A DNA stretch of 64,000 nt from Candidatus Micrarchaeota archaeon (GTDB lineage: Archaea > Micrarchaeota > Micrarchaeia > Norongarragalinales > UBA8480): the NCBI GenBank assembly GCA_023247085.1, contig JAHFHC010000002.1, forward strand, positions 24,395 to 88,394, in the 5' to 3' direction. Shown here one piece after another: positions 14,832 through 52,592 of this stretch. Within the stretch, counting starts at the first letter, position 1; every line of letters begins with the position of its first letter. The translations under genes and the position numbers were made by a program. A model generated the notes under the pieces. It made no database searches. It saw nothing but the letters and a program-made list of their open reading frames with translations, and was not told the origin of the DNA.

Positions 14832-16241
14832 TTAAATCCACTCTTCTTTTACCAACAAGTATTTAGCCAGTACATTGAGATTGGTTTTACTTACTTTTTT
14901 CACAAGCGATACCTTAGCGCTTTTAGCAGGTACGATAAAATGCGAAGCAATGCCCGTTTTTTCCATTCTCAATAGCTGCTCAGTTATTTTGATAAGTTCA
15001 ATTTCATGTTGTTCAACGTCTATGCACACTTTTTCTCCGTTTAAGTATGGCCCTCGGCTTATTTTTTTACCTTTCAAAAAGCCCACAACGTTTTCGCTAT
15101 GCCAAGCTGGTGGCCCAACGAGTTGCTTTACTTTCGGTAGCTCACTTGACGTAACTTCAAATAACAATTGCCCAGTTGAATAAGAGTCACAGCTTCCAAA
15201 TAAGTGAAAGCCACTTGCTTCTAGTTGCTTGAAAATGTTTTTTTCAGTTCGCTTAAACTGGGGGAATAAAATGTCGTCAACTACATCTGGTTTTTTTAGT
15301 TCAATTAACAAAAACGTTGTGCCGCGTTTAGAGATTATTTTATTCAATATCTTCGCTTTACTTTGACTTGCTAATTGGCTTTTTTCTTTAAAGAAAGCTT
15401 CGCTTGGTTTTTTTACAAACGCTTTTGCTAACAAAATGAACTTTGCTAAACTCTGTGAAGAAATTGCAGCTGCCGCGTTTCTATTGCGGTCAATCACATC
15501 GATTAGTATAATTGACGCATCTTTGAAGCGGTGTAGTAGTTCAACTTTGCCTTGCTTTGTTTCAGAATTCCACGTGCCTTCGTAATCAACTATTATTGGA
15601 GGTAGCCAAATTGCTGCTTCGCGTAGTAAGTTCTCTAAGTCGCCGTACTTTAGCATTAGTTGCTCGCACACTAGGCCAGAGAAGCCGCCGATTTCCACTT
15701 CTGCGCCGTAAATTTGGTTTGTTTTTAAGAGTTTTTTCAAAACCCTGACATCGCGACGCTGGCGTTGCGTTAATTTTTTTTGTAAATAATCCATGTGCAA
15801 TGGCGAGCGGTCAACTGCGCTTTTAATTCCAGTGTTAGGTTCAACTTTAAAGCAGGGGATTACTTCAATTTGGAAACCTGCAACGTTTGATTGAAGGTAA
15901 GGGTGTTCAGCATAGTGCGTTTCCCATTTTGTTTTTACTGCTTTTTTTGCTGCATCAAACGTTTTCTTAACAATAACTTCTTCATTCATCTCGCGAGGAA
16001 ATGCCGCAAACAAGTCGATATCTCGATCCCCGCGTAAACCAGTGTCACGCGCTGCGCTGCCTACAAAAGTAACTTCGACTGTTTTTGGCAAGAATTTTTC
16101 TAAATTCGAAATGACTTCGGCTGCGAATTTCTTCTCTTCTTTTAGCTCCGCTGGAGAAGGTGAAACCTCACCAGCTATTTTAGCAAATACGCGCTCCATT
16201 TCCATATAACTAGAAATACTCTGTGGTTGAATAAAAACCAA
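14832..16241 (-). CDS. cca: CCA-adding tRNA nucleotidyltransferase (archaeal class I)
   Basis: 469 aa. Class I polymerase-beta-type motif GSAARDTGLRGDRDIDLF near the N-terminus. Confidence 0.8.
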   Translation of the reverse strand: MVFIQPQSISSYMEMERVFAKIAGEVSPSPAELKEEKKFAAEVISNLEKFLPKTVEVTFVGSAARDTGLRGDRDIDLFAAFPREMNEEVIVKKTFDAAKKAVKTKWETHYAEHPYLQSNVAGFQIEVIPCFKVEPNTGIKSAVDRSPLHMDYLQKKLTQRQRRDVRVLKKLLKTNQIYGAEVEIGGFSGLVCEQLMLKYGDLENLLREAAIWLPPIIVDYEGTWNSETKQGKVELLHRFKDASIILIDVIDRNRNAAAAISSQSLAKFILLAKAFVKKPSEAFFKEKSQLASQSKAKILNKIISKRGTTFLLIELKKPDVVDDILFPQFKRTEKNIFKQLEASGFHLFGSCDSYSTGQLLFEVTSSELPKVKQLVGPPAWHSENVVGFLKGKKISRGPYLNGEKVCIDVEQHEIELIKITEQLLRMEKTGIASHFIVPAKSAKVSLVKKVSKTNLNVLAKYLLVKEEWI

Positions 16242-18846: not shown

Positions 18847-19743
18847 ATGATTCGAATAATTGCACTTGGAACAAGCGGGAGCATGCCAACTCCAAAATCT
18901 CCCCCTAGTTGCTTTGCGGTGAAATGGGGCGGCGTTTACTTATTTGACTGCTGCGAAGGCGGGCAACGTCAAATGATGAAGTACAACGTAAGTTTCGCTG
19001 GAATTGACGCCATCTTTCTATCTCACTTACATGCCGATCATTTTGTTGGCATATTTGGCTTATTACACTCAATGAATTTCACTGGCCGTACAAATGCACT
19101 GAAGTTATTCGGACCACGTGGCACAAAAAAACTCTTTTCCTCTATTTTTGCATTGAAAGAATTCACAATGCGATTTCCAATTGAAATACTTGAAGTTGAA
19201 GCATCCAAAAAACCTTTTTTCCAAACTGATTTATTTTCCGTCAAAGCGTTCGACGTAAAGCACAACGCTCCACATTCTCTTGGCTATGTTTTACAAGGGC
19301 TACCTTATCGCCGGTTTGACATGGAAAAATGTAAAAAAGTTGGCGTGCAAGGAAAGGATTTTTCGATATTGCAAGAAAAAGGTGAAGTTATGGCGAACGG
19401 CAAAAAAGTCAAGTATGCAGATGTAACTTACGTACAAGATGGGAAAAAAATCGTTTACACCGGCGACACTGCGCCGTGTAGTTCAATTGCAACAAATGCC
19501 AAAAATGCAGATTTACTTATACACGATGCATGCTTCTTAGAAAAACATAAGGCACACGCCAAACAAAAACTACACTCGACGTGTCTAGATGCTGGGAAAA
19601 ATGCGAAAAAAGCCAAAGTGAAAAAATTACTACTCACGCACTTTTCAAACCGTTACGATGACCAAACCGAATTACTTAAAGAATCCAAAACCGTTTTCGA
19701 AAACAGCGAATTAGCCCAACCCGGATTAGAGATTATGATTTAA
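18847..19743 (+). CDS. rnz: Ribonuclease Z (tRNA 3'-processing endonuclease), MBL fold
   Basis: [16 protein letters not shown] (HxHxDH) metallo-beta-lactamase motif; N-terminus [11 protein letters not shown] typical of RNase Z. Start placed at the internal Met of the listed ORF. Confidence 0.7.
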
Positions 19744-22631: not shown

Positions 22632-24293
22632 ATGGTAGTAGTGTCTTTTCCAACAAATCAACTCAAAAAGAAACTAAAACTCAGTGGCGACTTTCAAAAA
22701 ACGCTTTCTGAAACACTATTTAAAATTGGAATGGAACTCGAGTCAATAAATGACGACGAAACCATAATTGACATAGCTGGAGCAGGTAACCGCATTGATG
22801 CAGTTTCACTAGAAGGCCTTGTCAGGATAGTAAATGCATACGTTGGAAACTACGATTTTTATTTTCCAAAAATCACAAAAGGCAAAAACACAATTAATGT
22901 AGACAAAAGCGTAGCCGACATAAGGCCTTACATGGGTAACTTTATTGTGCGCGATATAAACATCGACGATGAGTTACTGACTCGCATAATCAATTACCAA
23001 GAAAAAATTGCCTCTACATTTGGTCGAAACAGAAAAGTAATCGGAATGGGTTTATTCAAATTAACTGAACTAAAGTTTCCACTCCAGTATATTGCCCTTC
23101 CTGCAAAACAAATTAAATTTGCCCCCCTTGGCTTTGAACAAGAAATGACTGGCGATGAGATCCTAAAAAAGCACGATAAAGGCGCCAAATACGGCGACTT
23201 ATTCGCCGGGAAAGATAAGTTACCCATATTGCGCGACGCAAACGGCAAAATCTTAACGATGCCAGGAATAACAAACAGTAATGATCTAGGCCGAGTTGAA
23301 CCAGGAAAACAAGACTTATTCATAGAAGCAACTGGCTCAAATCCAACGATGTTAATTCAATTATTAACCGCATGCGCGCTTGACTTCATTGAACTTGGTG
23401 GCAAAATAGAAAGCTGTACTGTAAATTATAATGGCAAAAAAGTAGAATTTCCGCAATTCACTTTTGATAAATACGTGCTTTCAATAAGTGAAATTGAATC
23501 AAAATTGGGCTTATCCCTCTCGTCACAACAAGCAGTTAAACTACTAAAACAAATGATGTTGCCAGCAACTGCAAAAGGCAACTCCGTTTTAGTCGATGTG
23601 CCTCGCTTTCGCTCTGACGTTGTACATAAAGTAGACGTAATAGAAGATGTTGGCAGAGCTTACGGCTTTGACAATTTTTCTCCCCTTGCTCCAACTCAGT
23701 ATAACTTCGGCAAAAAACACGGCAAGACGATTTTATTTGATTCAATTATAAGTTCATTTGTAGGACTGGGCTTCCAACAAGTTGTCTCCTTGATTTTAAC
23801 CGCTAAAAGTGAAGCAACTACAAAAGCAAATGTTGCGGACAATGGAAAATTTGTCGAATTACACTCAAGCCGGGCACTTGGATTAGATTCATGCCGTCAA
23901 TCTCTTTTACCGGGTTTACTTGCAATAGTAGCAAGTAACAAGGGATATTCTTACCCGCAAAAAATATTCGAAGTTGGAGAATGTCTTGAACTTGACAAAA
24001 ATAATGAAACCGGTGCATCAACCACTTGGAAAACATCTGGGGTTATAGCTGGTGCAAACCTTGGCTTTGCAGATGCAAAAGCAACAATAGAAGCACTTGG
24101 CAGGTGCCTTGATGATTACAAACTAAAAATAGAGCCAATGGAAGACAAGCGATTCATAACGGGCAGGTGCGCAAAAGTAACTGGAAAAACCTTCAGCGGC
24201 TTATTCGGAGAACTTGACCTTCAATTACTCCGCAACCACGGCATAGAAATGCCTTGCACTGCAATGGAAATAGAGCTGAAGCAAAAGAAATAA
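22632..24293 (+). CDS. pheT: Phenylalanyl-tRNA synthetase beta subunit (archaeal)
   Basis: About 553 aa, immediately after pheS. B3/4 and B5-like regions. Start placed at the ATG right after the pheS stop. Confidence 0.75.
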   Translation: MVVVSFPTNQLKKKLKLSGDFQKTLSETLFKIGMELESINDDETIIDIAGAGNRIDAVSLEGLVRIVNAYVGNYDFYFPKITKGKNTINVDKSVADIRPYMGNFIVRDINIDDELLTRIINYQEKIASTFGRNRKVIGMGLFKLTELKFPLQYIALPAKQIKFAPLGFEQEMTGDEILKKHDKGAKYGDLFAGKDKLPILRDANGKILTMPGITNSNDLGRVEPGKQDLFIEATGSNPTMLIQLLTACALDFIELGGKIESCTVNYNGKKVEFPQFTFDKYVLSISEIESKLGLSLSSQQAVKLLKQMMLPATAKGNSVLVDVPRFRSDVVHKVDVIEDVGRAYGFDNFSPLAPTQYNFGKKHGKTILFDSIISSFVGLGFQQVVSLILTAKSEATTKANVADNGKFVELHSSRALGLDSCRQSLLPGLLAIVASNKGYSYPQKIFEVGECLELDKNNETGASTTWKTSGVIAGANLGFADAKATIEALGRCLDDYKLKIEPMEDKRFITGRCAKVTGKTFSGLFGELDLQLLRNHGIEMPCTAMEIELKQKK

Positions 24294-24341: not shown

Positions 24342-25604
24342 TTATTGTGGCGTAGGTGAAGGGCTTTCAAGTTTAGGATGCCACTCTTCCAAAGCGCGTT
24401 TTAAGTCGGCATTATAAGCCTTTCCAGCAAGTAAAATTAATTTGCGTGCCGCAGCTAAATCCGCCCCCTCTAGCCTTCTACCCATAGAAATTGCTTTTGC
24501 ATAATGACGAGCAGCTATTTCAGGATTCCCTGATTTTAATTGCGTGCGTGCGTCTACAATTGCATTTTTCGCTTCCCTTGCCAATCCTTCTTCAGTAGCT
24601 TCGATTTCAATTGGTTTGCTTCCTTTTTTTTCATGTTCTGTTTCAACATTGGCAGTGCCAATGGGACTTGCAGGAGTAATGCCAGCTGCGGCTCCACTTG
24701 TGCTGTTTGGCTCAATAGTGTAGTTAGTCATAATAGCCGCTATTTTATTTTTTTTTACATATGCCCCTAGTTTCTCTTCCCAGTTTTTGCCAGGCATTTT
24801 TACTAATTCAAACAACGGTACGTGTACCGGTCTATTAGAAGTTGTGTCAAGTTTTGCCTCTCCGGTTGTTTCTGGAGTATCACTAACTTCATATTCATCT
24901 TTTGGTGGTTTAGGTTCTACAAATGGGTGAATTGGTACCACTTCTCTTTTACCAAAGTTTCTTAATTCAACTTTAGTAGGTTTAGGCAATTGATTCATGG
25001 CAAATGGTACGCCGAAAGCTAAGAGGCCGCCTAAAGTTAAGGCACCTAATGCATGTCTCACTAGTCCCGGTTTACCTCTCTTTTTTGGTAACAACGCAGA
25101 GGCCGCTCTTAATGCAACTGCTTCTTCTTTTTGCGTTCTAGGTCGCTGCTTCGGCTTTGAAATTTTAGTGGTATCAGGCGCTGGTTTTGACTCTTTTCGA
25201 GTTGGTTTAGGTGCTGTAGGTACTGAAGGTGTTGGCTTTGTTTTCTCTTTGACTGCAACTACTGCGGCTTGCTTCAAAAAGTGGCTCAATGTAGGTGCTT
25301 CAAAATGAGTTTTTAAACTACGTAAAGCTTCTTTAGCATCGGTTCCACTTGTGATTTTTCTTTCATGGTGTCTAATAAGTTCTCCTGTTCTACTCAAAAA
25401 TGCTTCAGTTTTTTTTGCAGTGGTTGCTTCTTTATGCAAACGCGCCATGTGGCTGCCGAGTTCCATTAATCTACTTGCAAACTTAGAATCAGTTTTTGCT
25501 CGTTTTGCAAATTCAGTAAATAGGTGACCTTTACTTGTTTGTAAAAAACCGTAGCGTGGAATTTTCTTTTCCTCGTAAAATCGCTTTGCATCTTCTCTTC
25601 TCAT
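24342..25604 (-). CDS. Single-pass membrane protein, paralog A (conserved N-domain, Pro/Thr-rich linker, TPR-like C-terminus)
   Basis: 420 aa. N-terminus FYEEKKIPRYGFLQTSKGHLFTEFAKR...; one TM helix (ALGALTLGGLLAFGVPFAM); conserved VPLFELVKMPGKNWEEKLGAY; C-terminal helical repeats (AARHYAKAISMGRRLEGADL...). Confidence 0.6.
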   Translation of the reverse strand: MRREDAKRFYEEKKIPRYGFLQTSKGHLFTEFAKRAKTDSKFASRLMELGSHMARLHKEATTAKKTEAFLSRTGELIRHHERKITSGTDAKEALRSLKTHFEAPTLSHFLKQAAVVAVKEKTKPTPSVPTAPKPTRKESKPAPDTTKISKPKQRPRTQKEEAVALRAASALLPKKRGKPGLVRHALGALTLGGLLAFGVPFAMNQLPKPTKVELRNFGKREVVPIHPFVEPKPPKDEYEVSDTPETTGEAKLDTTSNRPVHVPLFELVKMPGKNWEEKLGAYVKKNKIAAIMTNYTIEPNSTSGAAAGITPASPIGTANVETEHEKKGSKPIEIEATEEGLAREAKNAIVDARTQLKSGNPEIAARHYAKAISMGRRLEGADLAAARKLILLAGKAYNADLKRALEEWHPKLESPSPTPQ

Positions 25605-25618
25605 TTTTTATCTAGTAC

Positions 25619-26749
25619 CTATTTTGTTTTTTTAAGTTTTTGTTTTGTTTCTTCAACTTTAGCCGCTGGTTTTTGTAGCAAACGATGCCAGTCTTGCATA
25701 GCATGTTGAATGCTATAGCTTGAATTTGGCTCAGCGATGTTCATCAACGCGTGTGCATGCTCTAAGTCGCTTCCGGTTAATTCTCTACCAAAATAAATTG
25801 CGCGCGTGTAATGTAACGCCGCCATATCGTAGTTTCCTTTATCCCACTGACTGCGTGCTTTGTTTATTGCCATTTCTGCTCGTTCGGTTAATGCTTTTTC
25901 AGTTGGGTCTATATCTGGATTTGTAGTTTCTTTTGGCACATATTTCGTTGACACATCAGTTGTGCCGCTTGCGCTTGCAGTGGTGGGCACTGGTTTGTTT
26001 AAGTCGGCTGTGTTATTTGGAGTTGCAGTTGTGAGCACTACCTCGCTTGGTTCAATTGGTTCCTGCGAATAATCCAATATTGAAGCTTTTACGCCGTTTT
26101 TGCTTGAATACGCTGCGAGTTTATCCGCCCATGTCTTGCCGGGCATTTTTACTATTTTAAACAACGGTACCTCTATTTGTGGCGTGTAAATTGTTGATTC
26201 AATTTGAGGAGGTCTAATTAATTGATTTTCAGGAGTTTTCATTGCTTGGTGCATACCAAATAGTCCACCTGCAATTGCGCTGGCAGTTATTGCTAAGGCG
26301 CCGAATGCGCGCACTAGCCGTTTTGGTTTATTTCTCTGTTGTGGTAAAGCTGCGGTTGGTGTGGCTTTTTCTTGTTTGGCTGGTGTGATTGTTGCAATTG
26401 CTGTTTGTTTTAAGAATTCATTTAATGTGGGTGCTTTAAAGTGTCTATTTAGGCGTCGTAATGCATCTTTAGCATTCGTTCCTTTTGTCATTGTGGTTTC
26501 GTGGTGTTTTACGAGTTCAATTACTTTTTGTTTAAAGAAGTCGGTTTTGTCTGTAGTAGTTGCTTCTTTGTGTAGGCGTGCTATGTGGGCGCCTAGTGCT
26601 GTTAAATCTTTTGAGAATTGTGGGTCAGTCTTTCCTTGTCTTGCAAATTCAGTAAATAGGTGACCTTTACTTGTTTGTAGAAGGCCGTAACGTGGAATTT
26701 TCTTTTCCTCGTAAAACTGCTTTGCTTCGTTTACTTTCATTTTTCTCAA
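25619..26749 (-). CDS. Single-pass membrane protein, paralog B (same architecture as 24342-25604)
   Basis: 376 aa. N-terminus FYEEKKIPRYGLLQTSKGHLFTEFARQ; TM (AFGALAITASAIAGGLFGM); VPLFKIVKMPGKTWADKLAAY; TPR-like C-terminus. The 5' coding DNA is nearly identical to that of paralog A. Confidence 0.6.
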   Translation of the reverse strand: MRKMKVNEAKQFYEEKKIPRYGLLQTSKGHLFTEFARQGKTDPQFSKDLTALGAHIARLHKEATTTDKTDFFKQKVIELVKHHETTMTKGTNAKDALRRLNRHFKAPTLNEFLKQTAIATITPAKQEKATPTAALPQQRNKPKRLVRAFGALAITASAIAGGLFGMHQAMKTPENQLIRPPQIESTIYTPQIEVPLFKIVKMPGKTWADKLAAYSSKNGVKASILDYSQEPIEPSEVVLTTATPNNTADLNKPVPTTASASGTTDVSTKYVPKETTNPDIDPTEKALTERAEMAINKARSQWDKGNYDMAALHYTRAIYFGRELTGSDLEHAHALMNIAEPNSSYSIQHAMQDWHRLLQKPAAKVEETKQKLKKTK

Positions 26750-35712: not shown

Positions 35713-36870
35713 ATGTTAGATAGACAACCAGTAGACAATTCAAGCAGCGAAACAACAACCCAACCAATTGACAAGTCGAATAACAAGCCAAATATTCCAA
35801 TTGCCTTCATAGCTTTCTTAATTATTGCAATAGCGTTCATTTTGTTCAATGTTTACAGCTTTTTAACGCCAGTGAGTCCAATCGCAGGCGCAACAAATGC
35901 GGTTGTTGCAAAACCAATTTTACTTAGCGCCCAGAATTGCGTTAACTGCTTTCCACTTGACCAAGCTGCAACTCAAATCTTTCAAAACTTCGACCGCGTT
36001 TCTTACGCAGATAGCCACGGAAAAGATTTAGTTACTAAGTATTCGATTGCTAAACTTCCAGCGTTAATAATTTTCGACCCTTTAGCTCAATCTAATCCGC
36101 AATTAGCACAATTACTTGTCAAAAAAGGTGACGCGTTTGTCTTGGAAGCACCATCGGCTCCTTTTTACGACATTGCCTCTCAGTCAATAAAAGGAATCGT
36201 AACGCTAACTTCAATCACACCACTTAACTGCAGTAAGTGTACGGCTCCTTCGAATCTTGCTGACGAGTTTAAACAAAACAAAGTCAGCCTCGTATCTCAG
36301 TCGTTCATTGAGGGAAGCGAAAAAGCAAATGAGTTAATAGCTAAATACAATCTGTCTTTCTTACCTGCATTTATTTTAACGCATGATTTGCTTGAATACC
36401 CGACATTTAAACGATCATGGAACACAATGGGTTCAATTGAGCCAGATGGGACACTAGTTATGCGCCTTCCACTTCCGCCGTACAAAAACATCTCAACACA
36501 AAACATCGAAGGACTCGTAAGTGTAACTTACTTAAGCGACACAAGTTGTACGGCATGTTACAATGTTTCTGTTCACCGGGCTGTTTTGAAAGGATTAAAT
36601 GTACATATAGAAAACGAGACTTTTGTTGACGTGAGCTCACCTGAAGGCACCGCGATTTTAGCTAAGTATAATGTAACTGCTGTACCAACTATATTGTTAT
36701 CAAAAGAAGCGAACGTCTACTTTTCCATTAAACAAGTGTGGGCAACAGTTGGCTCAACAGAATCAGATGGCGTTTTTGTATTTCGTAATTTAGCTAAAAC
36801 TCCTGGCTTAGTTTATAAGAATTTGACTACTGGCCAGATTTTAAATTCAACTTCGCCAAGTGCAACTTAA
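35713..36870 (+). CDS. Membrane-anchored protein with three tandem thioredoxin/glutaredoxin-like CxxC modules
   Basis: N-terminal TM (IAFIAFLIIAIAFILF), then three repeats each with CxxC (CVNC, CSKC, CTAC) followed by a ...KY(S/N)(I/L/V)...(L/V)P(A/T)... motif reminiscent of thioredoxin-fold proteins. Confidence 0.45.
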   Translation: MLDRQPVDNSSSETTTQPIDKSNNKPNIPIAFIAFLIIAIAFILFNVYSFLTPVSPIAGATNAVVAKPILLSAQNCVNCFPLDQAATQIFQNFDRVSYADSHGKDLVTKYSIAKLPALIIFDPLAQSNPQLAQLLVKKGDAFVLEAPSAPFYDIASQSIKGIVTLTSITPLNCSKCTAPSNLADEFKQNKVSLVSQSFIEGSEKANELIAKYNLSFLPAFILTHDLLEYPTFKRSWNTMGSIEPDGTLVMRLPLPPYKNISTQNIEGLVSVTYLSDTSCTACYNVSVHRAVLKGLNVHIENETFVDVSSPEGTAILAKYNVTAVPTILLSKEANVYFSIKQVWATVGSTESDGVFVFRNLAKTPGLVYKNLTTGQILNSTSPSAT

Positions 36871-37471
36871 CGTATTCAATTGCGTTTTCTCTTCGAGAAT
36901 CAACTTCGAGCATTGGACAAAGTTGCTTGTAATGCTTTAGCAATGGCTTAGTTTTTTCTTCGTATATAGCTATTCGCCTAGCTATAGTTGTAGCTTCGTC
37001 TTCTTTTCTGTGAACTAATTCGCCCCCGCACACGTCACATGTTCCTGTTTTACGCGGTGGAGAGTACTTCGTGTTAAAAATAGCGTGACACTTTGAACAA
37101 ATAACGCGATTAATAATCCGATCAACAATAGTTGGTTCATCTGCAAACAAGTTTATAACTAAGTCAATTTTCTTATTGCGTTTTGCCAGTAAATCTTCCA
37201 AATCCCCCGCTTGTTTCAAGTTACGAGGATACCCGTCTAATATGACGTCGTCGTTTATTTCCTTTGCAACTAAGGCTAGAGTCTCTTCATCACTCATTAG
37301 TTTACCTGCATCTAAGTCTTCTTTAATTTTTTTTCCAAGTGGAGTGCCAGCTGCAATTTCGCGCCTAAACAAGTCACCAGTAGAAATTTGCCTAGCTACT
37401 TTTTGAGTTTGTAACGCTTGTGCTAACGTGCCCTTTCCCGAACCAGGCGCACCAAGCAAAACCAAAATCAT
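36827..37471 (-). CDS. adk: Adenylate kinase (long, bacterial-type with zinc-binding LID)
   Basis: P-loop LLGAPGSGKGTLAQ; the LID contains CSKC...CDVCGG. The 3' end overlaps the convergent upstream gene by about 44 nt. Confidence 0.85.
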   Translation of the reverse strand: MILVLLGAPGSGKGTLAQALQTQKVARQISTGDLFRREIAAGTPLGKKIKEDLDAGKLMSDEETLALVAKEINDDVILDGYPRNLKQAGDLEDLLAKRNKKIDLVINLFADEPTIVDRIINRVICSKCHAIFNTKYSPPRKTGTCDVCGGELVHRKEDEATTIARRIAIYEEKTKPLLKHYKQLCPMLEVDSRRENAIEYVKLHLAKLNLKSGQ

Positions 37472-37506
37472 TTGTAAACCCTACACCTTTTTATTAACGA
37501 AAAAGC

Positions 37507-37659
37507 GGGCTCGGTGGGATTCGAACCCACGACCCTCTGGTTTCTTCCCTCTAGAGAATAGAGTTAAAAGCCAGATGCTCTAGCCATTTCAGGAACAAAG
37601 AAAAACACGGTTGCGATAATCGCTATCATGCTTCTTTATTCTAGCTGAGCTACAAGCCC
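37507..37659 (-). tRNA. tRNA-Lys (anticodon UUU) with two introns (D-loop and anticodon-loop)
   Basis: Reverse complement reads GGGCTTG-TA-GCTCAGC[approx 57 nt insert]TGGCTAGAGC-A-TCTGG-CTTTTA[approx 23 nt insert]A-CCAGA-GGGTC-GTGGG-TTCGAAT-CCCAC-CGAGCCC. The 7-bp acceptor has one G-U pair, the T-loop is GTTCGAAT-like, and the anticodon loop CTTTTAA gives UUU. CCA is not encoded. Confidence 0.6.
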
Positions 37660-37683
37660 ACGTTAGTTTTTCGGACTGAATCA

Positions 37684-37693
37684 AAATATAAAC
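37684..37693 (-). promoter_or_regulatory. TATA box (TTTATATTT on the minus strand) about 30 nt upstream of the tRNA-Lys 5' end
   Basis: AT-rich box at the canonical archaeal promoter distance from the mature tRNA 5' end at 37659. Confidence 0.4.
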
Positions 37694-37806
37694 TTGCACT
37701 TCGCCCACTCATACTTAATAATCTTGGCGAAATGTAAGGCTATAACAAAGCAGCATTAATTCGGGTGCTTAACTGCTTTGTTTTCTGCTTTGTTATATAA
37801 ACCTGC

Positions 37807-39939: not shown

Positions 39940-40476
39940 ATGGCCGTACTTGAAGCGCTGCTTTTTTACTTTTTACTCATAGTTGCCACGCTGTTAATTG
40001 CCAAGAGAAAAACTTGGATTCAAACACTAAATTACTTAGGGCTACAAACAAAGAAACCGAACGTAATGCAAATAATGCGCAATGCGGCGATTCTAGTATT
40101 CATCATATTCATCAGCCTTACCGTTCTTTCAATTATATTATCGCTTGTGATTGTGGATGACTCGCAAAAAGTGTCTGCTATAATTTCAACTCTTTCTTTG
40201 CCAGCGATTTTAGTTGCAGTAACAATCGGTCCATTTGCAGAAGAATTATTCTTCAGGGGATGGTTACAAAAAAATATTGGCGTAGTTCTCTCAGCACTTA
40301 TTTTTGCAGGCCTTCACTTTTCATTTGGTTCAATTGCAGAAATATTTGGTGCACTTGTAGCCGGTTTAGTAATTGGCTATTGGGTAAAATACCGGGATTC
40401 AAACCTCTGGCCAGCTATAATAGCCCACGCGGTTTACAATGCAATTAGCATTTTGCTAGTACTGGTGATAAAATGA
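39940..40476 (+). CDS. CPBP-family intramembrane metalloprotease (CAAX protease/Abi-like)
   Basis: 178 aa, multi-TM. Motif 1 EELFFRGW, motif 2 FxxxH (GLHFSFGS), motif 3 HAVYNA. Confidence 0.7.
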   Translation: MAVLEALLFYFLLIVATLLIAKRKTWIQTLNYLGLQTKKPNVMQIMRNAAILVFIIFISLTVLSIILSLVIVDDSQKVSAIISTLSLPAILVAVTIGPFAEELFFRGWLQKNIGVVLSALIFAGLHFSFGSIAEIFGALVAGLVIGYWVKYRDSNLWPAIIAHAVYNAISILLVLVIK

Positions 40477-41531
40477 TTGTACTAGGAATTGAAAGCACAG
40501 CGCATACCTTTTCAGTTGCAATTGTACAGAAAAGCAAGGGACTCAGCAAAACAAGCAAAGCCACAAAGCGCGCTAAAACTAAACGCCAATTGAGTTCGAT
40601 CGAGGTTCTTGCCAATGCTTCAGATAAATACGCATCTACTCTTGAAGGTTACATTCCGCGCAAATTAGCTGATCATCATGCCGAAGCATTTCCAAAACTA
40701 TTGCAACAAGCTCTATCTGATTCAAGCATTTCTTTAAGCGAAATAGATGCAATTGCGTTTTCTCAAGGAAGTGGAATTGGGCACTGTCTTCACGTTGGAT
40801 ACGTGGCTGCAAAAACACTTTCCACTATGCTAAAAATACCGCTTGTGCCAGTTAGCCACAGCATCGGCCACATTGAAATCGGGCGAGAATTCAACTGCGA
40901 AACCAATGACCCGCTCGTAGTTTACGTATCTGGAGGAAACACGCAAATTCTCGGCCTTGATAAAAAAAATTCGAAGTATCATGTATACGGTGAAACAAGT
41001 GACATTGGAATTGGCAATTTCCTCGACGTACTTGGAAGAAAATTGGAGCTAAAGCCATCAGATGCAGTTGGAGTTGTGAATGCAGCGCAACTAGCGAGTA
41101 AATATATTGAAATGCCTTACACGATTCGCGGAATGAACCTAGCTTTTTCAGGTCTCTTAACGTACATTGAAAAAAAACTTATTCCACAAATCGAAACAAA
41201 AAAATTTACAAAAGAAGAAATTGCGTTTTCAAGCCAAGAAACTGCCTTTGCAATGTTATGCGAAGCGGTTGAACGCGCCTTGTGCCACACCAACAAAAAA
41301 GAAATCCTCTTATGTGGTGGAAATGCCCGCAACGCACGCTTGCAAGAAATGCTAAAAGAAATTTGCAGAGAACACAACGTCCACTTCGCTTGCACTTCTT
41401 TTGAATACTCCGGCGACCAAGCTGCAATGATTGGCTTAACTGGAATAAAAATGCTTGAATCAAAATGCCTTCCAAAATATGAGGCTCCAGTGCAGCGTTT
41501 GCGTACTGATTTAACACACGTTTGTTGGTGA
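40473..41531 (+). CDS. kae1: tRNA N6-adenosine threonylcarbamoyltransferase Kae1 (TsaD family)
   Basis: 352 aa. MIVLGIESTAHTFSVAIV N-terminus, metal-binding HSIGHIE, GGNARNARL. ASKHA fold. Confidence 0.85.
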   Translation: MIVLGIESTAHTFSVAIVQKSKGLSKTSKATKRAKTKRQLSSIEVLANASDKYASTLEGYIPRKLADHHAEAFPKLLQQALSDSSISLSEIDAIAFSQGSGIGHCLHVGYVAAKTLSTMLKIPLVPVSHSIGHIEIGREFNCETNDPLVVYVSGGNTQILGLDKKNSKYHVYGETSDIGIGNFLDVLGRKLELKPSDAVGVVNAAQLASKYIEMPYTIRGMNLAFSGLLTYIEKKLIPQIETKKFTKEEIAFSSQETAFAMLCEAVERALCHTNKKEILLCGGNARNARLQEMLKEICREHNVHFACTSFEYSGDQAAMIGLTGIKMLESKCLPKYEAPVQRLRTDLTHVCW

Positions 41532-41675
41532 ATTATTGACCTCAATTTGTCGGTGCTTAGCTGGGAACCTTTTTATTTCTTTTTTTCCCATTCTTATTTA
41601 CCCAAAGAAGCAAAATCGTAATTTAGACAACTAGCGTTTAAGTTTTAGAAGACGCGGTGTAGGTGAAAAAAACGT

Positions 41676-42323
41676 ATGAAAACTAAGCTCTATCAGTTTA
41701 TTTTAAAAGAACGCGAAAAAACAGCGAAAGTACTTGAAAACCTTGCCAATCTCTTGCGAAATGGCGGGGTAGCAGTTATCCCAACTGAAACCTGTTATTC
41801 ACTTGCAATAGATGCTACAAACGACGAAGCCGCACAGAAATTAAACGCCTTAGGTGTAAAACCCGGTTTAACCAATCCAATAATTGTAAGTGACTTGCGT
41901 ATGGCTAACGAATACACTTTGATAAATCCCTTAGCTGAAAAAATATCGCATTCATTTATGCCTGGTCCAGTTACATTGGTTGTTGACTTACTTCCAGAAA
42001 CTAAACTCTCCAAAAACGTGTTCACAGATGGAGCATCCTTTAGAATTTCAAGCAACGTGTTTACACGCGCACTTGCAAGTGAATTAGAAAAACCTATAAC
42101 CGTGTCTATATTGAGTGATTCGCCACCAATTTACAAATTTAAAGACCTCTACGATACGTTCAACACGAAACTAGACGCGATCGTAAGTTCAGGAGACTTG
42201 CCACAAGTAATGCCATCGACTGTAGTAGACGTCAGGTCACCTGTTCCACACCTGGTGCGCCAAGGGCCAGTTCCATTCGACGAAATAATGAACTTAGTTG
42301 CTAAAACCACTGTAGAAGCCTAA
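41676..42323 (+). CDS. L-threonylcarbamoyladenylate synthase (Sua5/YrdC domain only)
   Basis: 215 aa. GGVAVIPTETCYSLAIDATNDEAAQKLNALG is a YrdC-fold signature. Confidence 0.7.
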   Translation: MKTKLYQFILKEREKTAKVLENLANLLRNGGVAVIPTETCYSLAIDATNDEAAQKLNALGVKPGLTNPIIVSDLRMANEYTLINPLAEKISHSFMPGPVTLVVDLLPETKLSKNVFTDGASFRISSNVFTRALASELEKPITVSILSDSPPIYKFKDLYDTFNTKLDAIVSSGDLPQVMPSTVVDVRSPVPHLVRQGPVPFDEIMNLVAKTTVEA

Positions 42324-42401
42324 AAGCACTTCGACACTATTATGATCCGCAATGCTAAAGACATATTCTTATGTATGTGTGGCGTGTAGATAACTCTAGT
42401 T

Positions 42402-43019
42402 ATGCACAAAACACCGAACAACCAAGGCGCAGAAGCCGTTGTAACTAACTGCATTTACTTTAACACTCCAGCCATATCGAAGCGCAGGCTTCCAAAACGC
42501 TATCGCGTGCATTCCCTTGACTCAAAACTACGTTTAGAACGTACTAAAATCGAAGCAAGGATAATGCACCGCGCAAAAGCAACTGGGACAAATTGCCCGC
42601 TTGTATTATCAGTTGACCTTGAACGATGCGAATTAATCGAAACGCGATTAAACGGAGTTAAACTAGTTGACTACCTACAAGATAAAAAAAATCAAAAAAA
42701 TGCCAAACGCATTTTAGCAGATGCCGGCACTCAACTTGCAAAACTTCACCTTGCAAACATAAGCCACGGGGATTCAACTACTTCAAATTTCATGACTGAC
42801 GGCAAAAGTGTTTTCATATTTGATTTTGGCTTATCGCAATTCAATGCAACTGACGAAGAACGCGCCATTGACTTACTCTTATTTTTTAAGTCCGTATCTG
42901 AACTTCAATTCAAGTATTTCATCAAAGGATACGCGGCACAATACGGTGAAAAACAAACCAAGCAATTAATATCAAAGATTCGTGAAATAGAGTCAAGAGC
43001 AAGATACGTGGAGCGTTAA
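42402..43019 (+). CDS. bud32: Bud32 protein kinase (KEOPS subunit, RIO-like atypical kinase)
   Basis: About 205 aa. The RTKIEARIMHRAKATG region is typical of Bud32. Short kinase lacking an activation-loop extension. Adjacent to kae1/sua5. Confidence 0.65.
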   Translation: MHKTPNNQGAEAVVTNCIYFNTPAISKRRLPKRYRVHSLDSKLRLERTKIEARIMHRAKATGTNCPLVLSVDLERCELIETRLNGVKLVDYLQDKKNQKNAKRILADAGTQLAKLHLANISHGDSTTSNFMTDGKSVFIFDFGLSQFNATDEERAIDLLLFFKSVSELQFKYFIKGYAAQYGEKQTKQLISKIREIESRARYVER

Positions 43020-43027: not shown

Positions 43028-43903
43028 ATGGAATGGTATTTTTTTGCAATAGCCTCTGCAATTGTAACTGCAATTATAGGCGTAACTGAAAAAAAGATTT
43101 TACAACACGAGCATTCGCTTACTTTTTCAGTTACACATGCGCTAATAGCTTTAGTTATTTCACTCCCCTTTTTTATCTACTTTGATTTTTCAACCATTAC
43201 GCCGCAACTCATAATTGCAATATACTTTGCTATGCTTTTAGCTGCAGCTGCGTTTTGGCTTACTGCAAAAGGAGTCAAACATTTAGAACTATCTGTTTCC
43301 AGCCCGCTGACTCTACTTAACTTCATTTTCTTGCCTTTTCTAGCTTTTCTATTCGTAGGAGAACGCTTATCTTTCAAACAAATAGCAGGCGTTTGCCTCA
43401 TACTGTTGGGAGTACTAGCACTAGAGCTAATTGTTCACCGCGGCAAGTTCTTTCCTCACATTAAAACAAAAGGAAAAGAACAATATTTTCTATTTATGCT
43501 AATTGCAGGCTTATTCTATGCAGTTACCGCAATTCTTGATAAGCATCTACTTGCCGCAGTGAATCCATTTACTTATTTATTGCTTGCGCATTTCTTCATT
43601 GCCCTTAATAGCTTATTGTTTTTCGCGTTTTTCGACAAGGAATTCAAGCGAGATTTGAAAAAAATCTTTTCGCAAGACTTAAAAACCACGATTTTTGTAG
43701 CCTTCTTATCCATTATACAAAGGTTAACTTTTGCATTTGCAGCTTCAGCGGCTTACATAAGCATAGCAGTTGCAATTAAGCGCCTTAGCATACTATTCTC
43801 CGCGCTATTAGCTGGCAAACTATTTCACGAAAAAAACATAGTTGAAAAACTAGCGGTTTCAATACTAATGCTAATCGGCGCATTATTACTAGTGTGGCCG
43901 TAG
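43028..43903 (+). CDS. EamA/DMT-family transporter
   Basis: 291 aa with about 10 predicted TM helices in two repeated halves. Confidence 0.6.
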   Translation: MEWYFFAIASAIVTAIIGVTEKKILQHEHSLTFSVTHALIALVISLPFFIYFDFSTITPQLIIAIYFAMLLAAAAFWLTAKGVKHLELSVSSPLTLLNFIFLPFLAFLFVGERLSFKQIAGVCLILLGVLALELIVHRGKFFPHIKTKGKEQYFLFMLIAGLFYAVTAILDKHLLAAVNPFTYLLLAHFFIALNSLLFFAFFDKEFKRDLKKIFSQDLKTTIFVAFLSIIQRLTFAFAASAAYISIAVAIKRLSILFSALLAGKLFHEKNIVEKLAVSILMLIGALLLVWP

Positions 43904-47493: not shown

Positions 47494-48576
47494 TTGCCGC
47501 TGGCAAAATCGTTGAACAATTGCGACACTTGTGAAATAAAGGTATTTAATTGCGAGTTTGCTATTATTTCCAATATGCAAGAAGAGTCAATTACGCACAA
47601 GCGAGGAACTAGGCTTCACATTACTGAGCTTGATCCGGAAGATCCAAATTTTGAACACCACGTTGCTGATTCATGGAGAAACATAAAGGCTAGTTATCAG
47701 GAGTATCCCTATGTTGAAGTGGGAGATCCAGTGCATGTTAGGCGAGAAATAGCCGCTGGTCGGCTGAGGACTTTTCTAGTGCGTGAAGATAACCGAGTGG
47801 TTGGAACCGCAGCAATGGTTTCAAATGGTCCAGTCTGGGAATTCGGAAGATTGGCAGTTGACCCGAGCCACCGTGGAAAGGCTTACGGTCAAGCGCTTGT
47901 CTGGCACAGATTATCTGCGGCTGCAGGTGACCCGGTTTATACTACTGCACGCGCAGCTGAACCAGCCACTACGCATAATATCTTCAAGGCGTTTGCAACT
48001 ACGAAGGGCGGAGTGCATATCCTCGGCGTTGCGCCATATGCTTTGGTTAATCACAAACAAGAGTTTTTAATCGAGATGGGCGGAAATCTTGGAAAAGCAT
48101 CTGACTTCCAGCACCCGCGCTTTACCCCTGCAGAATGGGCTTTTCTCGGGCCATTTTTAAAAGGGCGGAGAACGGCATCATTTACTCACGTAAGGCCAAG
48201 CAATGTTAAAATTGGCGACATTGTAAAAGTTTCAGAGCACAGTAAATACGGCGTAGCTGAACCAATTGGAAACAAAGCAATTCGGGATGTAATAACCGCT
48301 GCACGGCGCAACTCGCTTGTAAACTTCTTAATGCTTCGCGTTCCGCTTAGAGACGAGCATTTGCCACTACGTGAAGCTTTGGTGCGTAATGGCTTTATTC
48401 CATCAGCAATTGGACCCAAGGGAAACTATATTATCTATGGCTTAGTCACGAAACCGAAACGCAAGGTAAAGCTAGGTGAAGTTAACCTACCAAGCAGCTT
48501 CGACGAGCCGCACGTTGCGCCAGTTAAAGATGCAATTATGAAAATAGTTGAAGCTTACCACGAGCAGCTAGCGTAA
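47494..48576 (+). CDS. Tandem GNAT-fold acyltransferase-like protein
   Basis: 360 aa (start possibly at the internal MQEES). VREDNRVVGTAAMVSNGPVWEFGRLAVDPSHRGKAYGQAL matches the acetyl-CoA binding motif A. A second GNAT-like half lies in the C-terminus. GC content is noticeably higher than in surrounding genes. Confidence 0.45.
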   Translation: MPLAKSLNNCDTCEIKVFNCEFAIISNMQEESITHKRGTRLHITELDPEDPNFEHHVADSWRNIKASYQEYPYVEVGDPVHVRREIAAGRLRTFLVREDNRVVGTAAMVSNGPVWEFGRLAVDPSHRGKAYGQALVWHRLSAAAGDPVYTTARAAEPATTHNIFKAFATTKGGVHILGVAPYALVNHKQEFLIEMGGNLGKASDFQHPRFTPAEWAFLGPFLKGRRTASFTHVRPSNVKIGDIVKVSEHSKYGVAEPIGNKAIRDVITAARRNSLVNFLMLRVPLRDEHLPLREALVRNGFIPSAIGPKGNYIIYGLVTKPKRKVKLGEVNLPSSFDEPHVAPVKDAIMKIVEAYHEQLA

Positions 48577-48585
48577 CTCGTGCTT

Positions 48586-49683
48586 TCAAATCTTTTTGCA
48601 CAGTTCAGTGTAGAACTGCTCAACTTGTCTCAATTGTTCTAGTTGCATTTTTTCGTCTGGAATGTGTAGTTTCATGTTACCTGCCCCTACGTTTATAGTT
48701 GGAATGCCTGCTTTTGAATAGTATCGCGCGTCGCTTGCGCCGAGCTTGTGCAAGTAGCCCGATATTGGTGTGCCGGTTACTTTTTCCAGCGTTGCCTGCG
48801 CGGTTTTGATAAATTCAGATTTTTCATCGCTAATCCAACCAGGCTCATTTTTTTGTATGTTTAATTTAACACTTTCTGGCAGTAGCTGCGTCAATTTTGC
48901 AGTGAATTTTTCTATTTTGATATCCGCAGGAAGCCTGAAGTCAATTGTTGCCTTGCATTGAAATGGAACTACGTTTTCAGCTGTTCCGCCTGAAATCAAC
49001 GTAGTGTTCATAGTTGGATGTGAAAAAACATATTCGTGATCGTGCGATTTCAGTTTAAACTCTTTTTCAAGCGCAACCAGCGCCGTTGCCATTGTATGCG
49101 CTGCATTTTTTGTATCTTGTGGGTAAGCCGCGTGCCCCCCTTTTCCCTCTGCAGTTAGTTCAATTTGCAACCGCGCCTTGTGTCCAGTTGCTAATTGCAT
49201 TGCAGTCGGCTCGCCGATAACTGCATAGTTTGCAGTTATTCCTTTTGCAATGGTTGCGCCTGTACCATTGTGGCCGCCAACTTCCTCGTCACCAACCGCG
49301 ATTAGTATAATCTCACTGCTTAGGTTTTGTTTTGAAATTGCAATTGCCGTGTTAATCATGGCGGCTAAATTACAAGTCATGTCACATGCACCCAAGCCCC
49401 ATAGTTCCCCTTTTTTCACAACTGGGTCAAACGGGTCAACAGTCCACTGATCAGATGGGGGTACGGTGTCATAGTGACCGTTTAGAATTATCTTTCGACT
49501 ATTTTCTTTTCGGCCTTTAGTTGAGCCTATTACGCTTACAACTCCATTGCTAGAAATTAGTTCAACGTGTAAATCGTTTTTTTCCAAGTAGGTTTTAATT
49601 AAGTCAACTGCCGCACTCTTATCTGCGCTACCTTCATACTTGTGTAGTTTAATTAATTCGCTTGAAAGTTCAATTGTTTTCAT
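48586..49683 (-). CDS. M20-family metallopeptidase/deacylase (ArgE/DapE-like)
   Basis: 365 aa. LNGHYDTVPP, GDEEVGG, GGHAAYPQ motifs. Confidence 0.8.
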   Translation of the reverse strand: MKTIELSSELIKLHKYEGSADKSAAVDLIKTYLEKNDLHVELISSNGVVSVIGSTKGRKENSRKIILNGHYDTVPPSDQWTVDPFDPVVKKGELWGLGACDMTCNLAAMINTAIAISKQNLSSEIILIAVGDEEVGGHNGTGATIAKGITANYAVIGEPTAMQLATGHKARLQIELTAEGKGGHAAYPQDTKNAAHTMATALVALEKEFKLKSHDHEYVFSHPTMNTTLISGGTAENVVPFQCKATIDFRLPADIKIEKFTAKLTQLLPESVKLNIQKNEPGWISDEKSEFIKTAQATLEKVTGTPISGYLHKLGASDARYYSKAGIPTINVGAGNMKLHIPDEKMQLEQLRQVEQFYTELCKKI

Positions 49684-50470: not shown

Positions 50471-51520
50471 GTGCCTGCTATGAATGCTTTAATTATACCT
50501 ACTACTTGCAAGTTGAATTGCGCTGCTAGCGTAGAAAATGCAAAAATTACGTTTGCAGCTTCGCGTGCGGTTTCTTCCCTTAAAGGTATGCAATTGGAAT
50601 CCATAGATAGTTTTGAAGCTGGGCAGTTAGTTGCAGTTAAGGTTGTTAGAAATAACAGCGGAAAACTTATTCGACTAAACGATTTAAGCACTTATGCTCC
50701 CATTGCTGGCGATGTTTTAGTTTGTCTAATTGGTGCAAATGGCTCGTTTAAAATTGAAGTTATAACTGTGCCAACTGCTGTCAATGAATGGGTGGTGGTT
50801 AATCGTGGCGGTTTAGTTGGCCAACCCATGTTTGATGTCGGTGAGTCGAGTTTAGTTGTCAGTTACCTTGGAAACCTTGTCAAAGACAATATGCCGGTTA
50901 AATTAACTGACAAATTGCCTGCAGAATACAAGTTTTATAAGCCAATAATTGCAGTGGTGGGCACTGACACTAATACTGGCAAGACGGTTACGACCGCTAA
51001 AGTGATCAGCGAGCTCAAGCAAATGGGGTTATCTGTAGGTGCTTGCAAATTAACGGGCATATGTGGAGACGATATATTATCTTACAAAGATGCTGGCGCA
51101 GATGAACTCGTTGATTTTACTGATGCGGGTTTACCTTCTACAATTTGTACTGAAGAAACTGCAGTTAATGCCGCATTAAAATGCATATCTAGTTTACAAA
51201 ACAACGACGTTATAGTTGCGGAATTTGGATCTACGTTGATTGGCGGTCACCCTGTGTTATCGATATTGAAAGCTTTTAATTTAAGTAATTTGAAAGTAGT
51301 TGTTTGTTGTTCGGACGTACCTGGAGCAATAGGTGCAATGTTTTTGCTTGCAAGTGGAGCAAATGGCTTGAGGCCTTCACTATTTTCAGGGCTAGTTGCA
51401 AATAGCGAGCTAGCTTGTGCTAAGGTGTTAGAAACTACTGGCGTGCCATGTGCTTCTGCTGCTAAATTCCTTTTGCGTACAATGATTTTTCAAGGTGTTA
51501 CAAATGTTGAATTGTGTTGA
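50471..51520 (+). CDS. DUF1611-like protein: N-terminal CoA-binding-like domain plus BioD/MinD-like P-loop domain
   Basis: 349 aa. P-loop IIAVVGTDTNTGKTVTTAKV resembles the BioD GTDTxVGKT motif. Confidence 0.45.
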   Translation: MPAMNALIIPTTCKLNCAASVENAKITFAASRAVSSLKGMQLESIDSFEAGQLVAVKVVRNNSGKLIRLNDLSTYAPIAGDVLVCLIGANGSFKIEVITVPTAVNEWVVVNRGGLVGQPMFDVGESSLVVSYLGNLVKDNMPVKLTDKLPAEYKFYKPIIAVVGTDTNTGKTVTTAKVISELKQMGLSVGACKLTGICGDDILSYKDAGADELVDFTDAGLPSTICTEETAVNAALKCISSLQNNDVIVAEFGSTLIGGHPVLSILKAFNLSNLKVVVCCSDVPGAIGAMFLLASGANGLRPSLFSGLVANSELACAKVLETTGVPCASAAKFLLRTMIFQGVTNVELC

Positions 51521-52592
51521 ACTTGCTAAGCAACTGGCAGCTATTCCTAGTTTTCAAGGTAATCGTGAGGTTTCTTTGTTTTTGAAAAATTACTTGGAAA
51601 AAGAAGGTATTTCTGTTCAAGTTATTGAAAAAAATAATGTACTGAATGTAGTTGCGCGTACTGGAAAGCGGGACGGCAGATCCCTATTGTTAAACGGTCA
51701 CACTGATACTGTTCCACCTCAACTTGGTTCGCAAATGCCAGTAAGTACAATTCGAGATGGAAAGCTCTTTGGCTTAGGCACCGTTGACATGAAGGCAGGA
51801 GCAGCTGCAATGACTTGCGCTTTTCTTGAACTAGCTAAAAAAGAAACTGAGCTTAATGGCGAAGTGATTTTAGTCCTTGTTGGAGATGAAGAAAATGGCG
51901 GAGCAAATGGAACAAAAGCAACACTAGAGGTGGGGGTTAAAGCAGATTACGTAGTTATAGGCGAACCAACTAATCTTAAAATTTGCCTTGGACAGAAAAG
52001 CGCATTGCAATTAGAAATAAGCGCTAATGGCAACGCACGCCACGCAAGTCGAATAAGGCCAGATGACAATGCAGTGTCTAAAGTTACAAATGTGCTGTAC
52101 TCATTAGAAAAAGCTTTTCCAGTTCCAGTCGGGCCAGATGACTTCTTGTTCAATAAAACAACTATGAATATAGGTACTGTCTTTGGAGGTACTGCTGCAA
52201 ATGTAGTTCCAGATAAATGTACGGCTACTATTGACTTTAGATTTTCTCCATTGTCTTCCAAAGAAGAGTTAACCAATCAAATTATGACTAATTTAAATGA
52301 AGCCATAACTGTAAAAGAGAGGTTTACTGCGCTTGGCTGGTCACTTGATAAAAACACGCCTTATTGTCGTGCGCTTGTTTCTACAATGAAAAAAGTTGGA
52401 ATCAAAGAAGAATTTGTTTACAAATTTGGTTCAAATGATGCTAGATTCTATAATGCAGAAGGTTGCCAAGTCGTTAATATTGGCCCTGGAAATAATTTAC
52501 TTTCACATACGGGCAAAGAAGAAGTCGAAGTAAATCAAATAGAACAAGCTAAGCAAGTATATTTGAAGCTAGCGCAAGAGTTATTAAAATAA
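51495..52592 (+). CDS. M20-family metallopeptidase/deacylase (paralog of 48586-49683)
   Basis: 365 aa. LNGHTDTVPP, VGDEENGG motifs. Overlaps the upstream gene by 26 nt. Confidence 0.8.
   Translation: MLQMLNCVELAKQLAAIPSFQGNREVSLFLKNYLEKEGISVQVIEKNNVLNVVARTGKRDGRSLLLNGHTDTVPPQLGSQMPVSTIRDGKLFGLGTVDMKAGAAAMTCAFLELAKKETELNGEVILVLVGDEENGGANGTKATLEVGVKADYVVIGEPTNLKICLGQKSALQLEISANGNARHASRIRPDDNAVSKVTNVLYSLEKAFPVPVGPDDFLFNKTTMNIGTVFGGTAANVVPDKCTATIDFRFSPLSSKEELTNQIMTNLNEAITVKERFTALGWSLDKNTPYCRALVSTMKKVGIKEEFVYKFGSNDARFYNAEGCQVVNIGPGNNLLSHTGKEEVEVNQIEQAKQVYLKLAQELLK

Follow-up and report, generated by a model that had tools for sequence, protein, structure and literature searches.

A probable functional tRNA-Lys(UUU) gene interrupted in the D-loop and at position 37/38 in a member of the Micrarchaeota

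The closest described counterparts of the tRNA gene considered here belong to Candidatus Micrarchaeum acidiphilum (ARMAN-2), an organism in which 56% of the tRNA genes are disrupted (Fujishima et al. 2011, PMC3239211) and whose three-unit epsilon2 endonuclease cleaves both strict and relaxed forms of the bulge-helix-bulge (BHB) splice motif in vitro (PMC3239211). Reviews count ARMAN-1 and ARMAN-2 among the lineages whose tRNA genes can have several introns, with three per gene as the highest number (PMC4033280, PMC4090602). The positions at which such introns are listed in reviews comprise 20/21, 22/23, 25/26, 29/30, 30/31, 45/46, 53/54, 56/57, 59/60 and 3/4; position 17/17a is absent from this list, which ends with 'etc.' [quoted passage not shown] The incomplete tRNA sets of new DPANN genomes have been taken to point to disrupted genes that have gone undetected (PMC5829648).

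The locus described here lies on the minus strand (37659-37506) of the window, i.e. the whole 64-kb stretch of DNA that was analysed. A first-pass annotation had proposed at this place a tRNA-Lys(UUU) gene with two introns, in a DPANN-type host. The reading put forward in the present analysis, to which we assign a probability of roughly 0.9, is that of a functional two-intron tRNA-Lys(UUU) gene of a Micrarchaeota (DPANN) host. As to the host, the earlier proposal is borne out by the adjacent adenylate kinase gene: close homologues of its product are confined to uncultured archaea, with Candidatus Micrarchaeota as the best named relatives, and the protein is 96% identical to that of the nearest contig, 'Candidatus Micrarchaeota archaeon isolate nzgw34'. 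Other markers of an archaeal host encountered in the analysis are ribosomal P0/P1, Rpo7, Spt4, Spt5-NGN, CDP-archaeol synthase, and an archaeal CCA-adding enzyme. In this small DPANN genome, the tRNA probably reads AAA (and AAG) codons.

The positions of the exons, introns, pairing elements and flanking signals are collected in Table 1. With the discriminator G73 (at 37506) included, the gene is 154 nt long; the locus and the strand were correctly recognized at the outset, while the length of 153 nt then given stops at C72. From 5' to 3', the predicted pieces measure 17, 56, 22, 23 and 36 nt (exons 17/22/36, introns 56/23). The acceptor stem, GGGCTTG/CGAGCCC, has 7 bp with one G-U, and the T arm reads GTGGG-TTCGAAT-CCCAC; both arms can be read directly in the sequence and are canonical, as had been claimed. 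The D-stem, GCTC...GAGC, follows U8 A9. Exon 1 ends in AGCT before the 56-nt insertion, and exon 2 opens with TGGCTA and continues with GAGC and A. The anticodon stem TCTGG/CCAGA encloses the loop CTTTTAA, the variable region is GGGTC, and CCA is not encoded by the gene. An intron is indeed present in the D-loop, although its size, first estimated at about 57 nt, has to be corrected to 56 nt, and its place can be given as exactly between U17 and U17a. For the intron at 37/38, the estimate of about 23 nt was exact.

After removal of both introns, a valid 75-nt cloverleaf is obtained (-32.5 kcal/mol), which ARAGORN calls tRNA-Lys(ttt), in agreement with the identity first suggested. The predicted spliced junctions are GCUCAGCU↓UGGCUAGAGC in the D-loop and CUUUUA↓ACCAGA at 37/38 (here and below, the arrow marks the splice site). 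The spliced product retains the conserved nucleotides U8, A14, G18 G19, A21, U33, G53 U54 U55 C56, A58 and C61 as well as G15/C48, and its anticodon loop, CUUUUAA, has 7 nt, with U33, the anticodon UUU, and a purine at 37. A split or permuted tRNA gene is ruled out, since all three exons are colinear within the 154 nt. The unspliced precursor folds at -60.9 kcal/mol, as compared with -40.6 +/- 3.9 kcal/mol for shuffled sequences (z = -5.2; none of 200 shuffles equals it).

Table 1. Features of the two-intron tRNA-Lys(UUU) locus and of related processing genes in the window (positions numbered from the first nucleotide of the window).
Feature	Position	Strand	Basis or remark
TATA box TTTATATT	37685..37692	-	-33 to -26 from G1
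Exon 1, G1-U17 (acceptor 5' half, U8 A9, D-stem 5' half, A14 G15 C16 U17)	37643..37659	-	Identical in the closest relative (L001)
Intron 1, 56 nt, D-loop 17/17a, AGAAUAAAGAAG...UUUCUUUGUUCCUGAAA	37587..37642	-	BHB rule and intron-less orthologues L007, L021
Exon 2, U17a-A37 (G18 G19, D-stem 3' half, anticodon stem 5' half, C32 U33 U34 U35 U36 A37)	37565..37586	-	
Anticodon UUU	37568-37566	-	Within exon 2
Intron 2, 23 nt, canonical 37/38, ACUCUAUUCUCUAGAGGGAAGAA	37542..37564	-	BHB in strict register
Exon 3, A38-G73 (anticodon stem 3' half, variable loop GGGUC, T arm, acceptor 3' half, G73)	37506..37541	-	
D-loop BHB helix H, exon side, U12 C13 A14 G15	37645..37648	-	Predicted to pair with intronic CUGA, 37589-37592
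D-loop BHB helix H, intron side, CUGA	37589..37592	-	Invariant in the 6 D-intron orthologues found by synteny
Stem h', 5' strand, GAAUAAAGAAG	37631..37641	-	Starts directly after the 5' bulge C U↓A; 11 bp with 37593-37603
Stem h', 3' strand, UUUCUUUGUUC	37593..37603	-	Pairs with GAAUAAAGAAG
T5 run, likely archaeal oligo-T terminator	37500..37504	-	After G73 and C; putative terminator role
Archaeal class I CCA-adding enzyme	14832..16241	-	TIGR03671, 371.6 bits (cut-off 281.3); Pfam tRNA_NucTransf2, CAA_C
RNase Z, tRNA 3'-trailer endonuclease	18883..19743	+	NF000801, 271.6 bits (cut-off 252)

The splice sites were modelled with the BHB rule (PMC3239211), which comprises two 3-nt bulges, a 4-bp helix between them (helix H), and cleavage after the second nucleotide of each bulge. 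The BHB proposed at the 37/38 junction is found in strict register: C32 to U35 pair with GAAG (C32-G, U33-A, U34-A, U35-G), the bulges are U36 A37↓A and A A↓A38, the 5-bp anticodon stem serves as helix h, and helix h' has only 2 bp in the strict register, rising to 5 bp if one extra G is allowed. A BHB motif can likewise be drawn at the D-loop junction, so that neither of the two outcomes named at the outset as refuting, an invalid cloverleaf after intron removal or a missing BHB at this junction, was obtained. Here, helix h is UAGC/GCUA (4 bp; U8-C11 with G76-A79 in precursor numbering), the 5' bulge is C16 U17↓A (3 nt), and the 3' bulge is AA↓U(G), which has 4 nt or, alternatively, 3 nt with a U-G pair, at the cost of one helix H pair; the last two nucleotides of this 3' bulge (U74, G75; 37586-37585) already belong to exon 2. 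As modelled, the D-loop BHB of the window is near-strict and slightly relaxed (3-nt bulge, 4-bp helix, 4-nt bulge). It had also been stated that a gene of this kind requires a splicing endonuclease of broad specificity. Since the D-loop BHB of the window is close to the strict form, such a requirement is no more than plausible for the lineage, in which relatives have more relaxed motifs. Constraining the precursor to the BHB gives -57.1 kcal/mol, a cost of only 3.8 kcal/mol; the minimum-energy structure obtained without constraints favours instead an extended D-stem from which CUGAAA bulges out (6 nt).

Comparison with related genomes places the gene in a conserved context. The order PIN_9 - tRNA - adenylate kinase is kept at the loci L001, L002, L004/5, L006, L007/8, L015, L020 and L021, and in every one of 8 related Micrarchaeota contigs the same tRNA lies in the gap between PIN_9 and adenylate kinase. 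In the closest relative, L001, the exons show 0 differences in 75 nt, as against 9 in the 56 nt of intron 1, 7 in the 147 nt of the upstream spacer and 6 in the 34 nt of the downstream spacer. In the orthologues L007/L008 and L021 the D-loop intron is missing, and the sequence at this place is GCUCAGCUUGGCUAGAGC / GCTCAGCTTGGCTAGAGC, the exact spliced junction predicted for the window; these intron-less genes are the most direct evidence for the D-loop splice junction. Among the distinct orthologues, the D-loop intron is present in 7 and absent in 2. The 37/38 intron is present throughout the syntenic set, and the T-loop is uninterrupted in the window and in L001 and carries an intron of 46 to about 150 nt in the other orthologues. 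These T-loop introns form recurring oligo-pyrimidine/oligo-purine hairpins.

The anticodon is UUU in the orthologues; in the more remote Micrarchaeota genes that share the D-loop intron, it is UUU or CUU. A pattern scan of genomes gave 10 matches, including 6 further Micrarchaeota-type tRNA-Lys genes (UUU, CUU), the syntenic L015, and 2 matches in bacteria (L012 and L017), which were rejected as chance matches spanning adjacent tRNA genes. A scan of metagenomes with a pattern that did not require CTGA returned only a duplicate of L004. Because the loci L009-L018 came from a pattern in which TCAG...CTGA was obligatory, the conservation of helix H among them is a selection effect and not independent evidence. 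Automatic exon mapping was used for close orthologues only, being unreliable for the distant L010, L016, L018 and L020.

Scoring covered twelve distinct D-loop introns, 40-66 nt long, in addition to a 32-nt intron in L020, and all of them are inserted at the same site. The bodies of these introns are unalignable between relatives; the stem beside the bulges (stem h') is paired, and in the same register, in every one. Over 11 distinct sequences, 5 of the first 6 pairs of stem h' have changed on both sides, and the covariation count gives 23 cells with both-side changes where 8.6 are expected, a score that is reached by none of 500 shuffles. When the register is slid, pairing in stem h' drops to 26-48%. 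This count gives the same result for the BHB and for the extended D-stem, since the columns that would discriminate between the two models are invariant. The intronic CUGA(A/G)A is itself invariant in the six D-intron orthologues that were found by synteny, independently of any pattern (window, L001, L002, L004, L006 and L020). Its invariance favours the BHB, because under the extended D-stem this string would be an unpaired bulge without obvious constraint, and yet it does not vary. In the anticodon-intron BHB, helix H tracks the anticodon, with CUUU facing GAAG or AAAG in the UUU genes, and CUCU facing AGAG in the CUU genes L010 and L016; in 8 of the 10 orthologues that could be used, all of its pairs are intact.

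The gene is not called by standard detectors. Default ARAGORN reports no tRNA in the whole window, Rfam at the gathering threshold has no match in it, and an Rfam scan of 37400-37760 at a relaxed E-value recovers the T arm only. Both strands were also searched for an intact T arm accompanied by matching acceptor halves; this returned the target locus and one obvious non-tRNA, but no second credible tRNA in the window. Low-threshold ARAGORN matches at 6576-6707, 9110-9223, 23118-23312, 43260-43387, 47868-48036, 48538-48657, 51314-51448 and 58104-58172 lie inside ORFs or have poor folds, and were treated as false positives. In its intron mode (-i), ARAGORN does make a call at the locus, but the gene so called, c[37505,37659], is a tRNA-Leu(taa) whose 62-nt intron is placed at position 31. 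This output would make the gene a tRNA-Leu(UAA) with a single intron, the second insertion being read as a long variable arm, and it is the evidence in favour of that model. The model, though, needs mismatches in both the D-stem and the anticodon stem, and it puts the anticodon in sequence that belongs to an intron in every orthologue. In L007 and L021, which have no D-loop intron, an uninterrupted D-arm is followed by a CTTTTA anticodon loop, and the sequence taken for a variable arm is unconserved between orthologues, against 66-75 identical positions out of 75 in the Lys exons. The orthologue comparison thus contradicts the tRNA-Leu model, and there is hardly any probability left to it.

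The lack of a call by standard detectors could also be explained by decay, i.e. by a tRNA-Lys gene that was hit by two insertions and is no longer processed into a working tRNA. Such a pseudogene is very unlikely: its exons would not be expected to match those of L001 exactly next to a D-loop intron and flanks that have diverged, nor does decay agree with the conserved promoter and T-run, with the intact state of all conserved tRNA nucleotides, or with an intron site that Micrarchaeota have retained while compensatory changes took place in the stem at the splice site. A different role for the D-loop insert deserves mention, given that some archaeal tRNA introns encode C/D-box guides, e.g. the intron of Haloferax tRNA-Trp. 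The insert might then carry a small functional RNA of this type, with CUGA as its D box; CUGA, which stands without variation at the 3' end of the intron, agrees with the consensus of a D box, and strings resembling UGAUG occur in some introns (CUGAUGA in L009, UGAUG at the 5' end in L002 and L020, AUGAUAG in the window). CUGA is, however, the complement of the fixed exon UCAG, and is explained in this way by the BHB. It also lies outside the terminal stem h', and not on its inner side, so that no kink-turn with an internal C box would result. The C-like strings are conserved neither in position nor in sequence, that of L009 being part of stem h', and no snoRNA or sRNA family matches the locus (37400-37760) in Rfam at a relaxed E-value. 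A guide RNA in the insert is, like a pseudogene, very unlikely, and the functional two-intron tRNA-Lys(UUU) gene remains the preferred reading.

The TATA box announced at about 30 nt upstream is present at the expected distance, and its TTTATATTT columns are invariant in the 5 aligned loci (window, L001, L002, L004 and L005). A T-run follows the tRNA gene in all orthologues. Transcription, cleavage, the order in which the introns leave, the kind of endonuclease and ligation are all matters of inference, and the pathway proposed is as follows. Transcription would be driven by the TATA box, would start at G1 or a few bases before it, and would stop at the T5 run. In the precursor, U12-G15 would leave the D-stem and pair with the 3'-terminal CUGA of the intron, and the 4-bp central helix so formed would be flanked by the bulges C16 U17↓A and A A↓U(G), the 11-bp h' and the 4-bp exon helix U8-C11/G76-A79. 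At the anticodon, C32-U35 would pair with the intronic GAAG, leaving U36 A37↓A and A A↓A38 as bulges. An archaeal splicing endonuclease would then cut each bulge after its second nucleotide, and a ligase of the RtcB type would join the three exons. Among about 50 window ORFs that were scanned, none matches the tRNA-intron endonuclease families and none matches RtcB ligase. The relaxed motifs of relatives would agree with an epsilon2 enzyme bearing the ARMAN-specific loop or with an alpha4 enzyme bearing the L3 insert, whereas the D-loop junctions of L006, L009 and similar loci would be difficult to reconcile with a plain strict-type enzyme. RNase Z would trim the 3' trailer and the CCA-adding enzyme, which is needed because the gene encodes no CCA, would complete the 3' end; both enzymes are encoded in the window (Table 1). 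The expected product is a tRNA of 75 nt, or 78 nt with CCA.

Genes that are missed in the way of this tRNA-Lys lead to 'incomplete tRNA sets' in DPANN genome bins (PMC5829648), and missed disrupted tRNAs can distort both estimates of completeness and inferences on codon usage. In the orthologue series, intron presence and absence is recorded cleanly, in sequence, for three sites of one tRNA gene, and the series offers natural D-loop BHB substrates, ranging from nearly strict to relaxed, which could be used in work on the specificity of Micrarchaeota endonucleases. A bolder proposal, which we regard as possible but doubtful, is that the 17/17a intron is an old, phylum-wide feature of Micrarchaeota tRNA-Lys (UUU and CUU), maybe uncatalogued, and that BHB introns have been gained or lost, recently and precisely, at three sites of this locus. 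If this were true, the locus would be a natural system for the gain, loss and retention of archaeal tRNA introns, in which it could be asked whether the T-loop introns, with their recurring hairpins, are mobile.

With respect to known systems, the locus adds a well-supported example to a gene layout already known in Micrarchaeota; it does not represent a new kind of gene, and the current understanding of archaeal tRNA splicing is unchanged by it. The disrupted tRNA genes of ARMAN-2 (PMC3239211; Hirata et al. 2012, PMC3488258; PMC12397907) come from the same phylum and share with the window gene the presence of more than one intron per gene, the occurrence of strict and relaxed BHB forms, and the failure of standard tRNA finders to detect them. 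The ARMAN-2 examples described in the main text of that report (PMC3239211) are T-loop (53/54, 59/60) and 37/38 introns, and a 17/17a intron in tRNA-Lys is not mentioned there. The pre-tRNA-Glu(UUC) of M. kandleri (Kaneta et al. 2018, PMC5829648) has the same layout, with a D-loop and a 37/38 intron, and here too the precursor must refold so that nucleotides of the D-arm join the splice motif. It differs from the window gene in tRNA identity and in lineage, in the position of its D-loop intron (20b/21, instead of 17/17a in the tRNA-Lys) and in its motif, which is of the relaxed HBh' type, whereas the window gene allows both bulges and all three helices to be drawn. The multi-intron tRNA genes of Thermoproteales and other Crenarchaeota (PMC4090602, PMC4033280) have up to three BHB introns, likewise at non-canonical sites that include the D arm and the T loop, and likewise with differences in intron presence between close relatives; these lineages, however, use (alpha-beta)2 endonucleases with a Crenarchaea-specific loop.

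In most relatives, the tRNA-Lys loci contain a third intron, lying in the T loop at approximately positions 56-59 and ranging in length from 33 to about 150 nt; the loci grouped under this observation are L002, L004/L005/L019, L006, L007/L008, L011, L015, L016, L018, L020 and L021. The tRNA-Lys genes of the window and of its closest relative (L001) carry no T-loop intron. Several of the long T-loop introns present repeated oligo-pyrimidine/oligo-purine hairpins (e.g. CTTTTTCTTTTT...AAAAAGAAAAAG), and a GGCGCCACGCCTGGCACC-like core is also found in several of them. The 173-nt anticodon intron of L016 has a CTTTCTTTC...GAAAGAAAG motif that resembles that of the long T-loop introns. The long T-loop introns and the L016 anticodon intron may form a family of related, perhaps mobile, introns.

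Two of these orthologues, L002 and L007, have an extra element upstream of the tRNA (Table). Both copies adopt a common irregular hairpin fold closed by a GNRA tetraloop (GUAA or GCAA), with single-base interruptions at corresponding places and compensatory changes between the two, and each has a folding z of about -2. These hairpins may represent a structured 5' leader. In the window, no such hairpin precedes G1, the first tRNA position.

Features of the window and of two orthologous loci (L002 and L007).
Feature	Position	Strand	Remarks
Upstream element, L002	L002:3695-3732 (approx.)		~35 nt, TATA box to tRNA 5' end
Upstream element, L007	L007:2570-2609 (approx.)		~35 nt, TATA box to tRNA 5' end
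NurA and HerA genes, Rad50/SMC-like ATPase	974-3565 and 8528-11152	+	
Archaeal CCA-adding enzyme	14832-16241	-	<23 kb from tRNA gene
RNase Z	18883-19743	+	<23 kb from tRNA gene
420-aa ORF	24342-25604	-	no Pfam/NCBIfam match
376-aa ORF	25619-26749	-	no Pfam/NCBIfam match
Adenylate kinase	36827-37471	-	adjoins tRNA; bacterial/eukaryotic ADK type with lid domain
Kae1/TsaD, Sua5, small RIO/Bud32-like kinase cluster	40473-43019	+	3-5 kb from tRNA
M20 peptidases, two paralogues	48586-49683 and 51495-52592		
543-aa ORF	52609-54240	+	no Pfam/NCBIfam match

No second tRNA gene was found in window positions 1-64000 by default ARAGORN, Rfam or a T-arm/acceptor scan, none of which would pick up a tRNA gene interrupted in its T loop, as many are in relatives. 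Low-threshold ARAGORN matches elsewhere in the window fell within ORFs or had poor stems and were rejected.

Genes for tRNA processing and modification are also encoded in the window. The RNase Z ORF lacks roughly the first 10 residues of its family profile, and its true start may be further upstream or another start codon may be used. Kae1/TsaD, Sua5 and a Bud32-type kinase direct the formation of t6A at A37, and the substrates of this modification include tRNA-Lys(UUU). The gene cluster is kept in relatives; its closeness to the tRNA-Lys(UUU) gene is probably a coincidence.

Among the remaining genes, the three large ORFs were matched by no Pfam or NCBIfam family at E <= 0.001 (the Pfam cut-off for the 543-aa ORF was 0.0001), and several GNAT acetyltransferases are present. 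Beyond a handful of Micrarchaeota-like sequences, the best matches of the adenylate kinase are bacterial (44-47% identity), and because of this the gene may derive from an old horizontal transfer. NurA, HerA and the Rad50/SMC-like ATPase constitute an archaeal DNA end-resection set.
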